From a virus (lineage: Duplodnaviria > Heunggongvirae > Uroviricota > Caudoviricetes), in the IMG/VR virus record IMGVR_UViG_2695420651_000012: DNA of 5,462 nt; one strand, 5' to 3'. Shown here one piece after another: positions 1-3,000 of this stretch. Every line of letters starts with the position of its first letter. Within the stretch, counting starts at the first letter, position 1. The position numbers were made by a program.

Positions 1-3000
1 CCTGGCACGGCTGGGACGGAAGTCGCTGTCGTTCTCAAAATCGGTGGAGCTGCATGACAAAGTCATCGGGCATTATCTGAACATAAAACACTATCAATAA
101 GTTGGAGTCATTACCGCTTTCCTCTGTAGGTTATCAACACGTCCTGCGCCTCTAAAATGATGGGCCGCTTTTCCGGCAACGGACCATCCCCTTCACATAA
201 CCCGGCAGCAACATCCATGAAAAACTGCTTCGCCTGCTTTTTCGCCTCAGCTTCGTAAAACTCCAGCGTGGCTCCTTCAGTACGGTCAAGACTAATCGCC
301 ACATCTGGCAACAACAGTGACGGATACCCACCAATTTCCGGTGCCACAGTAACAGTAATCTTATCCGGGTAATTATTTATCCCTTTAACAACCAGTTCGT
401 ATTTTTTCTTCATCGCTTTACTCTCCCCGCGCCGCCTTACGACGGTCCTCTCTGATTTTGAAATACAGGTTAGTCAGATACGTCAGCAGGCCAAACAGCA
501 GACTCCCCAGCACACCTATCGCCACCCACTGGGACGGAGAGACTTTGTCCAGCAGCTGCAGTAACCAGTATCCCGTCCCCACCGCTGACGTGGTGTATGA
601 CACACCCGTTGTGATTTTTTCCATCTGGTACATACCCCGTCTCCCGCAATCCGGAAGCTCACAACAACAGGAGGGGCATCAGCTCACACCGACAGCCCCT
701 GCGTATGGTTACATCATCATTTCGCCGCCAGGCTGAGGCTCACTGCTACCGTCAGGCTGAGACACAACGCCATCTGAAACAGCACTGTCACCCGCGCCGT
801 CTTCAGGCTCAGGAGCAGCCGGTCCCCCCAGCAGCTCATCCAGAATGGCATCCACTTCAGCATCAAGACGCGCCTCAAGATTCTGGCGGAGTTGCTGTTT
901 CAGTGCGCTTCTGACTTCTTCAGAGCGCAGGACGTCCTTCACTGCTTCAGCAGTGACCAGAGATTTTATTTCTGACATGGGATTTTCTCGTTGAAAGGTG
1001 TTGTTAAGAAAGTTGCTACGAAATGAGAGGCTCTTCGGGTTTTGTTCCGGCTGACTGGCTGGCGCTGATTTTTTCCGCCGCCGCGGCATCAATCTTTTTG
1101 CGTATATAGTTCCGGATAACCTTATACCCGCCACTTACCAGATATAACGTGCACACCACCGTGCAGAAATACAATAAAATAAGCTGTACAAATCTCATTA
1201 TCCCTCCCGGTTATTGATATGGTGTTGACATCGTTAATACCTGTTGGTTAAAAAAGTGTCCTGCATGTTTTGCTTTGGATATAACGACATTTGCCGCCGG
1301 TTCTGGCTCCTTGTTTTCCCTGCCCCGGCGGCCTTTTTTTCCTGCTTACGGGTTATTCACTTCCACTGTTATACTTTCAATCAGCACCGGATATGTCGCA
1401 CCGCTAGTGATATCGGTCACGCGCAATTTGTCTGCCGTAAACGTGCCGACCGGTGACTGTGACAGCATGAACGGCGTCCCGTCCTTACCATCAATGACCG
1501 GCGTCACCTCAATACTGTTGTTACCGGCAAAACGGAAGCCCAGCGTATGCCATTCGTTATCAAATGCGCCGAATGACCCCAGCTTCGTGTTCTGACCAGC
1601 ATTTCCCTTGTGGTACATCACATTAAGGTCTGTGGCATCGCTCTGTACGTAAAACGACGCCAGCAGGTTATGACCGGCATTACCTTCCAGTGTGACGCCC
1701 TGAGGCAGTGAAGAAACCGGCCAGTACAGCGCCAGTGCGTACTGATTAGCTGTCAGTGTGCCATCAACTTTAAAACGACAACTGATAAGCCCGCCCTTCT
1801 CCAGCAGGTCTGCGCCATTACCGGCATCATGCTGCATAAACCACGAGGAACTTCCTGTCTGTTTGGTCCACCTCAGCGCCTTACCTCCTGCAGCACCTGC
1901 ATCATCAACTACCAATGCACGCCCTCCTTCAGCTCCCCATCCCTGCGGATTCAGTAAACCACCTGACTCTGTTGCACGGTAATAAAGCAGCGTTGTCACT
2001 GATTTCCCGTCCGTTGACGGTGTTGATGGTGTGTCCGGTGACGGCTTCTCATCCGGCGGCATCACAACCTGTTCCCCACCCACCAGTTCAGCCGTCCTGC
2101 ATGGAGAAGAATCGCTGAGGCAAGACGGTCAGAAATAATCCCCCTGCGTGCCCATGAGCTGAAATGGCTCGCACGGTCTGCTGACGTCCAGTTTGCCGAC
2201 GTCCGGGAGGCCGCACCGTAATATCCTGATGCCGGAATATCCGGGTCTTCTTCCGGTTTGTTCGTCGGGACATTTGCTCCGTTCTCATCGGTCATGAACG
2301 GCACAAAGTGAATATTCTTTTCCGTTTTGTTTTTGTAACTGCCGTACACCGTCTGGTAAGTGGATTCGCTCTTCTGCTTCCAGAAATAAGTTGTGTCTCC
2401 ACATATCCAGGGAACACCGTCAGCAGAACCACCAGCGCACTGTCCCACCATATCTGCAAGGTCCGTACGATATTGTTCCACTACTTCTGTAAAACGGGCT
2501 GTGTGATTTGCTGGCGTTCCGTCAAAGTCAAATTCCCCCTGCATCCACACCACGGCAAGCAGCACATTTTTCGGGTTCTTTGCCAGCGCGGCTTTTGTAC
2601 GACCGATGAGATCCTTATACAGCGGCCTGCCCACACCCCAGCGGGTAGAACTCTCTGAGGCACCGGTCACGTCACTGTATGTTCCATCTGCCCCGGTGGT
2701 GAAAGCTGAACCACCACGGCAGCACGGAACCAGAAGAATACCCGCATTCGCCGGTATAAACGGCAGCAGCTTTTTGGCAATATGCAGCCCCTGCCCCACG
2801 GTTCCGTACTGACCTTTCGACAGGTCAGCTTTCGGATGATTAAGACGGCTCATGTCCTGTACATCATGCAGACAGTGGTCTGCCGGAATAATGTCGTTAT
2901 ATTTACAGGGAGCGCCATCCGGCGTCACTGTGCTGCGACGAGCCAGTTGCTTTATACGCGGGTCAGGACGGTCATATGTCTGCGGCAGAGGAAGCCCCTC

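Follow-up and report, generated by a model that had tools for sequence, protein, structure and literature searches.

What is transcribed from the strand opposite the genes of a prophage late region, in the short spacer between an esterase gene and the lysis cassette, and does this RNA control the small membrane protein encoded beside it? The question is raised by a 5,462-nucleotide (nt) stretch of viral DNA, IMG/VR record IMGVR_UViG_2695420651_000012 (the window), which is the late region of a lambdoid prophage and carries every gene on the minus strand. A promoter-like sequence and a terminator hairpin lie on the plus strand of the spacer between nanS-p, the gene of a sialate/SASA esterase, and the open reading frame (ORF) of a 60-amino-acid (aa) DUF1378 protein. 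An earlier note on this sequence read the arrangement as a type I toxin-antitoxin module of the hok/sok kind. The feature is already known: it is EcOnc33, an experimentally detected, uncharacterised prophage small RNA (sRNA) of the PasA/PasC kind. The probability that plus-strand positions 1225-1340 are the gene of EcOnc33, a prophage-encoded, Hfq-binding and trans-acting sRNA, is put at about 85%. The earlier observation is thus confirmed and its interpretation partly supported, since the RNA is real and the role of a hok/sok-type antitoxin is unsupported. The elements concerned are the following.

1225-1230, plus strand: -35 box TTGACA, the sole TTGACA on either strand of the window
1245-1254, plus strand: -10-like element, TTAAAA (1248-1253) after TGG with a 17-nt spacer, or TAAAAA (1249-1254) with an 18-nt spacer
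1261-1340, plus strand: EcOnc33 sRNA, about 75-80 nt, 5' end at about 1260-1262 and 3' end in the T-run 1334-1340
1261-1282, plus strand: 5' seed region CUGCAUGUUUUGCUUUGGAUAU, the part ligated to arcA and ECs0890 in RNase E-CLASH (crosslinking, ligation and sequencing of hybrids)
1293-1340, plus strand: intrinsic terminator, with arm GCCGCCGG at 1293-1300, a 24-nt interior, arm CCGGCGGC at 1325-1332, C1333 and T7 at 1334-1340

The identification starts from the spacer itself. Positions 1199-1345 are an exact 147-nt match to positions 1557186-1557332 of the Sakai genome (NC_002695.2) in prophage Sp6, on the strand opposite the late genes, where the counterpart lies between nanS-p (ECs_1527) and the DUF1378 gene (ECs_1528). 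In Table S2 of Tree et al. 2014 (Mol Cell 55:199, PMC4104026), EcOnc33 is listed in Sp6 on the minus strand, with an Hfq-CRAC (UV crosslinking and analysis of cDNA) peak at 1557089-1557136 in older coordinates. According to the same table it has a predicted Rho-independent terminator, was recovered in five of five Hfq-CRAC datasets and gave a Northern band of about 71 nt. By area under the curve (an area score), just one of the 32 terminator-bearing candidates ranked above it (Tree et al. 2014, PMC4104026). AsxR, EcOnc03 and the read sequences together give an offset of about +134 to +141 from old to new Sakai coordinates (+134 to +139 for AsxR and EcOnc03, which flank the locus). After this correction the Hfq-CRAC peak falls on window positions of about 1254-1302 on the plus strand.

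Besides the offset, the mapping is supported by sequenced reads that carry the plus-strand sequence of the window. Reads labelled EcOnc33 are contained in the RNase E-CLASH data of Waters et al. 2017 (EMBO J, Table EV7, PMC5286369), and three of their segments are identical to the window: CTGCATGTTTTGCTTTGGAT corresponds to 1261-1280, ATTTGCCGCCGGTTCTGG to 1289-1306 and CCTGCCCCGGCGGCCTTT to 1319-1336. Overall, coverage extends over about 1261-1281 and 1289-1336. One read joins CCTGCCCCGGCGGCCTTT to ATTTGCCGCCGGTTCTGG and represents an intramolecular hybrid of the two terminator arms. The existence of EcOnc33, its strand, its approximate ends, its binding to Hfq and its ligation to other RNAs in vivo have thus already been catalogued, and the plus-strand RNA of about 80 nt that the earlier note predicted for roughly 1260-1340 is this molecule. 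A search of Rfam at E <= 1 returned nothing in 1199-1345 and no EcOnc33 family (an STnc100 match was found elsewhere in the window), and a BLAST search of the 147-nt spacer against the phage collection gave no match.

The promoter-like sequence described in the earlier note, TTGACA with a TG-preceded -10 at 1225-1254, is present. A TTGACA followed after 16-18 nt by TWAAAA occurs once in the window against 0.01 expected, and is present in 3 of 200 shuffled sequences. A strict consensus promoter scan missed the site because the -10 has no final T. An A-rich hexamer (TAAAAA, TAGAAA or TGAAAA) stands at equal distance from the -35 box in all variants of this intergenic position, referred to here as the sRNA slot, including the expressed sRNAs PasA and PasC. 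The TTGACA box and its A-rich -10 would accordingly act as a promoter, and the 5' end of EcOnc33 is probably a primary start from it. The -35 box also sits within an 11-nt direct repeat (TTGAYATGGTG TTGACATCG) at window positions 1215-1230. One copy of the repeat is deleted in some variants (ST866 and loci L042-L050), in which the remaining TTGACA is still 17 nt from the -10.

The terminator likewise has the form described earlier, an 8-bp GC stem followed by T7 at 1293-1340. For the 88-nt plus strand a folding energy of -29.3 kcal/mol was computed (z = -4.0), which none of 200 shuffled sequences reached. A terminator scan overlooked the hairpin because the loop measures 24 nt and the limit of the scan was 8. 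In the minus-strand reading, A7 comes before the hairpin and AAAUGUCG, with no U-run, comes after it, so that termination is expected on the plus strand only. The earlier note had regarded a plus-only terminator as otherwise unexplained; it ends a catalogued prophage sRNA. A preference of the stem for the plus strand was looked for in G-U wobbles and in folding energy, and none was found. The mean folding energy of the hairpin over 40 variants is -19.9 kcal/mol on the minus strand and -18.4 kcal/mol on the plus strand, the minus strand being on average 1.5 kcal/mol more stable. It is therefore the T-run, the promoter and the experimental reads, and not the stem, that assign the strand. The terminator adjoins the stop codon of nanS-p (1346-1348), and the same abutment is seen in all related loci.

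Conservation of the slot was assessed in 80 IMG/VR loci fetched via an alignment of DUF1378, together with the E. coli and phage loci already collected; 85 DUF1378 loci had enough upstream DNA. All 85 share one layout, in which an antisense TTGAC[AT] is found 16-27 nt away from the ATG of DUF1378 and a hairpin with T5-8 borders the esterase stop codon. Promoter and hairpin are thus kept alongside the ORF throughout. A consensus -35 box stands on the same strand in every case, about 100 nt upstream of the hairpin, and each of the 42 unique variants has the T-run on the plus-strand side and none on the opposite side. Among these loci there are 38 distinct sequences, which belong to at least five unrelated RNA bodies. 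Covariation of the hairpin across homologous prophages, a check named beforehand in the earlier note, was also found: 7 of 12 stem pairs change on both sides, with a score of 0.189 compared with at most 0.114 in slid controls. Such compensatory changes indicate that the stem is maintained. Three distant DUF1378 relatives in Cedecea and Rosenbergiella, from a single-protein search of genome contigs, have neither the slot nor the esterase context, an observation of little weight either way.

Different RNA bodies occupy the slot in sequenced Shiga toxin (Stx) phages, as found by reading the loci. In Stx phages of the 933W/Sp5 type it holds another body, seen at 1768-1886 on the plus strand of vB_EcoS_ST2-8624 (locus L008) and again in loci L063-L088. 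It consists of TTGACA-N17-TAAAAA followed by about 80 nt, ACCGCCAGCG...CGCTGGCGGT, with T7, and RefSeq annotates a 41-aa 'hypothetical protein' on its opposite strand. No EcOnc or Pas name was found for it, and from its sequence it is a candidate RNA.

The CLASH data also indicate with which RNAs EcOnc33 comes into contact. Five unique reads represent the hybrid between EcOnc33 and ECs5359, which was recovered in either orientation and in replicate datasets; it overlaps with an Hfq site, and its false discovery rate (FDR) is 2.7e-4 (PMC5286369). ECs5359 is arcA, and the ligated fragment AUUUAGGUAGCAAACAUGCAGACCC covers its Shine-Dalgarno sequence and start codon. A second hybrid of the same 5' region involves ECs0890 (FDR 0.0065; PMC5286369). 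The 5' 32 nt of EcOnc33 are predicted to form a duplex of -22.4 kcal/mol with arcA positions -19 to +6, in which the first 20 nt are able to pair. This result was used in place of full-length RNAduplex calculations against arcA or the DUF1378 leader, which ignore the sRNA's own structure. Within the 5' region, CUGCAU is invariant among EcOnc33-type variants. Binding to Hfq together with ligation of the 5' end to unlinked mRNAs is the behaviour of a trans-acting sRNA. The Hfq association, known from published crosslinking, and the 5' seed mark EcOnc33 as a classical Hfq-dependent sRNA of this class.

Several points weigh against this assignment or against parts of it. In the literature searched, EcOnc33 was found as a catalogue entry and no main-text mention was found. 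The -10 element is weak and atypical, both candidate hexamers ending without the conserved T, and a processed 5' end has been proposed for PasA (Zhu, Shabalina and Storz 2026 preprint). EcOnc33 shows no significant similarity to PasA or PasC, with global alignment z-scores of 1.3 and 2.5, respectively, compared with 13.5 between PasA and PasC. The analogy is therefore positional, and EcOnc33 is a separate occupant of the slot, not a demonstrable homologue. The CLASH support consists of few reads, and the 20-nt duplex between the seed and arcA is only modestly above chance, as 58 of 2000 shuffled seeds did as well. Repression of arcA by EcOnc33 is itself an inference. Finally, every E. coli-type DUF1378 gene examined has a slot sRNA gene upstream, a co-occurrence that would be compatible with a functional link to that ORF.

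This last point leads to the question whether the RNA serves the gene beside it.

1016-1198, minus strand: DUF1378 gene, 60 aa MRFVQLILLYFCTVVCTLYLVSGGYKVIRNYIRKKIDAAAAEKISASQSAGTKPEEPLIS, ATG at 1196-1198, late operon, neighbour of the sRNA
1202-1208, minus strand: Shine-Dalgarno sequence GGGAGGG of DUF1378, 3 nt before the ATG

The ORF is found as the earlier note had drawn it, with a Shine-Dalgarno sequence, a hydrophobic N-terminal stretch containing one predicted transmembrane helix, and a charged tail. The protein matches Pfam PF07125 (E = 5.8e-40, 135.7 bits against a cut-off of 25, residues 1-59 of 59) and PHROG 494, of unknown function, and is named 'DUF1378 family protein' in RefSeq. 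Its homologues form 132 clusters, nearly all from Escherichia or Shigella. Pfam comparison with the Hok, Ldr, Ibs, TisB and Fst families gave no match at E <= 0.01, and PADLOC and NCBIfam searches of DUF1378 and DUF826 returned nothing relevant. The gene lies within the Q-dependent late operon; DUF826 follows 37 nt downstream, and after it comes the holin gene. No minus-strand promoter-like site for DUF1378 was predicted in 1199-1345. The 5' end of EcOnc33 (1261) is 52 nt upstream of the DUF1378 Shine-Dalgarno sequence and 62 nt upstream of the ATG, leaving the translation start uncovered.

In a type I system, DUF1378 would damage the membrane and the plus-strand RNA would pair with the leader of its mRNA, blocking translation or triggering cleavage as in hok/sok or tisB/istR-1. 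The size of the ORF (60 aa), its N-terminal hydrophobic helix, its charged tail and its strong Shine-Dalgarno sequence all fit such a toxin. The sRNA promoter lies 27 nt upstream of the DUF1378 ATG and fires divergently, and a divergent layout of toxin and RNA also occurs in tisB/istR-1, shoB/ohsC and zorO/orzO. Transcripts entering from nanS-p would be perfectly complementary to the whole RNA, as the earlier note had pointed out, which is true by construction. A ribosome standby site some 50-60 nt upstream of the DUF1378 start would be compatible with the sequence, and the antisense sRNA gene is immediately upstream in 85 of 85 E. coli-type DUF1378 loci. That co-occurrence is, however, expected from the shared synteny of a single late-region module, and sRNAs of the same design exist where DUF1378 does not: in enteropathogenic E. 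coli (EPEC) these are PasA and PasC, and in Sakai the second sRNA gene of Sp12 and of Sp4. The RNA stays clear of both the Shine-Dalgarno sequence and the ATG by the gaps given above. For DUF1378, no match to a known type I toxin family or to a PADLOC model was found. With no promoter predicted for it in the spacer, and placed by DUF826 and the holin in the Q-dependent late operon, it would appear at a time when lysis is imminent in any case. Moreover, the RNA is heavily bound to Hfq and ligated to the unlinked mRNAs of arcA and ECs0890, and among the CLASH matches listed there is no entry for ECs1528, the DUF1378 gene. Taken together, an antitoxin of the hok/tisB type is very improbable here.

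A role in trans could be combined with one in cis. After induction, EcOnc33 might act through a duplex with the late transcript or through polymerase collision, leading to processing (such as RNase III cleavage) or attenuation and so tuning either the downstream DUF1378-DUF826-holin-endolysin genes or nanS-p/stx upstream. The complementarity to the intercistronic late mRNA is perfect over 80 nt, the slot keeps its position at the junction of esterase and lysis cassette over at least five unrelated RNA bodies, and the RIL-seq (sequencing of ligated, interacting RNAs) partners of PasA include the 3' end of its neighbouring esterase gene. On the other hand, Q-modified polymerase and very high late transcription would probably swamp an sRNA present at lysogen level, and a 'moron' site at which insertions are tolerated could account for the constant position (Tree et al. 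2014, PMC4104026). Such a dual function is considered unlikely. A broader proposal regards the junction as a dedicated sRNA slot with a fixed promoter-terminator frame and interchangeable bodies, whose RNAs would reprogram host regulators such as ArcA in the lysogen and would have a second job in cis, gating DUF1378 and holin, by pairing with late transcripts or by convergent transcription, in the manner of a type I antitoxin or a lysis-timing brake; it appears slightly more doubtful. The hairpin could also function mainly on the minus-strand late mRNA, stabilising the 3' end or providing a site of processing behind nanS-p, with the plus-strand transcript as noise. The minus strand folds as well or slightly better, and the hairpin lies 6 nt after the nanS-p stop codon. 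Yet the T-run is on the plus-strand side in 42 of 42 variants, the -35 box invariably accompanies it on that strand, and the plus-strand RNA is abundant, Hfq-bound and validated by Northern blotting. A mere mRNA hairpin is thus extremely improbable.

For EcOnc33 as a trans-acting sRNA, the following course of events is proposed. The promoter with its perfect TTGACA -35 box and A-rich -10 would start the RNA at about position 1261, and the intrinsic terminator with its 8-bp GC stem and U7 would end it right at the nanS-p stop codon. Transcription would run convergently to the Q-dependent late operon, and the RNA of about 75-80 nt could be made in the lysogen. Its unstructured 5' end (CUGCAUGUUUUGC...) would serve as the seed for pairing with host mRNAs aided by Hfq, for which the terminator hairpin, the U tail and the preceding A/U-rich stretch would form the usual binding module. 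In the best documented pairing, that with the ribosome-binding site and start codon of arcA, lower translation of ArcA would be expected. DUF1378 would be an ordinary late-operon gene that by chance lies downstream of an sRNA slot of lambdoid prophages.

The locus illustrates that a small membrane ORF beside an antisense RNA gene is not sufficient grounds for diagnosing a type I toxin-antitoxin pair. Among Hfq-bound RNAs EcOnc33 is abundant, and its published hybrids suggest as a target arcA, the gene of the master regulator of the aerobic/anaerobic switch, a link relevant to gut colonisation by O157 and O55 strains. A slot between nanS-p and the lysis genes in which unrelated RNA bodies share a fixed promoter-terminator frame fits prophages that diversify sRNA seeds at fixed sites. 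The remaining value of the locus lies in the arcA link, in the diversity of the slot and in the 933W-type variant of Stx2 phages, for which no name was found.

The remaining features of the window are these.

5176-5442, minus strand: RusA gene
4358-5179, minus strand: antiterminator Q gene
between Q and the STnc100-type sRNA, minus strand: decayed TerB and DUF3927 genes
3420-3586, minus strand: STnc100-type sRNA (Rfam RF02076, 99.6 bits, E = 1.5e-21), terminator at 3392-3374, minus strand
1346-3279, minus strand: nanS-p (sialate/SASA esterase), frameshifted, stop codon at 1346-1348
709-981, minus strand: DUF826 gene, 37 nt downstream of DUF1378
418-633, minus strand: holin gene, phage-21-type
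111-413, minus strand: DUF1327 gene, interrupted by an IS1 end (1-116)

The whole window is 99.9% identical to an E. coli O55:H7 prophage and 99.6% identical to the O157:H7 prophage Sp6. With the STnc100-type sRNA on one side and EcOnc33 on the other, the nanS-p esterase gene is flanked on both sides by sRNA genes. The STnc100-type sRNA, between Q and nanS-p, takes the position that PasD/EcOnc04-type sRNAs have in other prophages. In this copy nanS-p is a pseudogene: compared with Sakai ECs_1527, one CCGT direct-repeat unit is missing at about 2091-2092, and the frameshift leaves two ORFs, 2062-3279 and 1346-2083. The IS1 end (window 1-116) is 100% identical to the IS1A/IS1B copies of thousands of plasmids; the element is inserted in the DUF1327 (YdfR-family) gene, and related O55 and O157 genomes match only from base 116-118 on. 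Just downstream of Q, two minus-strand hairpins followed by U residues are located at 4324-4308 and 4277-4260. The pR'-tR' short leader RNA (6S RNA in lambda, StxS in Stx phages) would be expected in this region (4260-4330), for which Rfam gave a weak match only (suhB/mmgR, 20.5 bits). Decay is evident in the TerB-family gene at 3758-4080 (minus strand), in which Pfam TerB matches a 48-aa fragment and stops (e.g. a TAG at about 4053) break the frame upstream of it.

How does EcOnc33 compare with systems already described? The EcOnc33 locus of Sakai Sp6 is identical to that of the window in DNA, context and strand, and its reads match base for base; the two prophage copies differ elsewhere, the window having the IS1 insertion and the nanS-p frameshift. 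With the type I loci hok/sok, tisB/istR-1, shoB/ohsC and zorO/orzO the window shares a small hydrophobic ORF and a nearby RNA gene on the opposite strand, and the divergent layout of tisB/istR-1 resembles that of DUF1378 and EcOnc33. It differs from them in that DUF1378 has no toxin-family homology and no predicted promoter of its own, and in that the RNA does not overlap the translation start.

The anti-sRNAs AgvB and AsxR (Rfam RF02702/RF02703) offer a further comparison. They too are short, Hfq-bound sRNAs of lambdoid late regions, and their genes occupy a 'moron' site on the strand opposite the late operon. This site is 3' of stx or Q and upstream of nanS-p, whereas EcOnc33 lies downstream of nanS-p. 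AgvB and AsxR sponge GcvB or FnrS, whereas the recorded partners of EcOnc33 are mRNAs. Their conserved 3' domain, which in AgvB and AsxR measures about 42 nt (GUAUCUCAUGC..UUGCCCGAACCCAYUCGGGC), was sought in the window with up to 8 mismatches and gave no match, nor was there an Rfam match to RF02702 or RF02703 at E <= 1.

Counterparts in the same slot are PasA (85 nt) and PasC (79 nt) of EPEC E2348/69, which are Hfq-dependent, validated by Northern blotting and have many RIL-seq partners each (Pearl Mizrahi et al. 2021); their homologues in enterohaemorrhagic E. coli are EcOnc51/52. In the spacers of E2348/69 prophage PP2 (L013) and Sakai Sp12 (L016), two tandem antisense sRNA genes are seen, each with its own TTGACA and terminator; the pair consists of PasA/EcOnc51 and a PasC-like gene beside the esterase stop codon. 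One CLASH read with the label EcOnc51 corresponds to the promoter region of the second gene, and the two may therefore be confused in published labels. EcOnc33 was also compared in sequence with the EcOnc52 type and with the 933W type, and no significant homology was found; what it shares with PasA and PasC is limited to the promoter boxes, CUGC at the start and a GCC(A/G)G core in the stem. The PasA/PasC loci differ from the window in having no DUF1378 or DUF826 and in that they may hold two tandem sRNA genes; the seeds, and hence the targets, differ as well. Synteny of esterase, PasA/C and holin, with PasD/STnc100 upstream of the esterase, has been described (Zhu, Shabalina and Storz 2026 preprint), and EcOnc33 occupies the same slot in the same orientation, pointing back towards the SASA esterase gene from the side of the lysis genes, in a window that likewise has an STnc100-type sRNA upstream of the esterase. 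The design is also alike: PasA and PasC start with CUGCC a few bases after TTGACA-N17/18-CAGAAA, and they share with EcOnc33 the TTGACA box, the 17-18-nt spacer, an A-rich -10 (CAGAAA or TGAAAA in PasA/PasC), the CUGC start, a length near 79-85 nt and a GC hairpin with U7 that adjoins the esterase stop codon.

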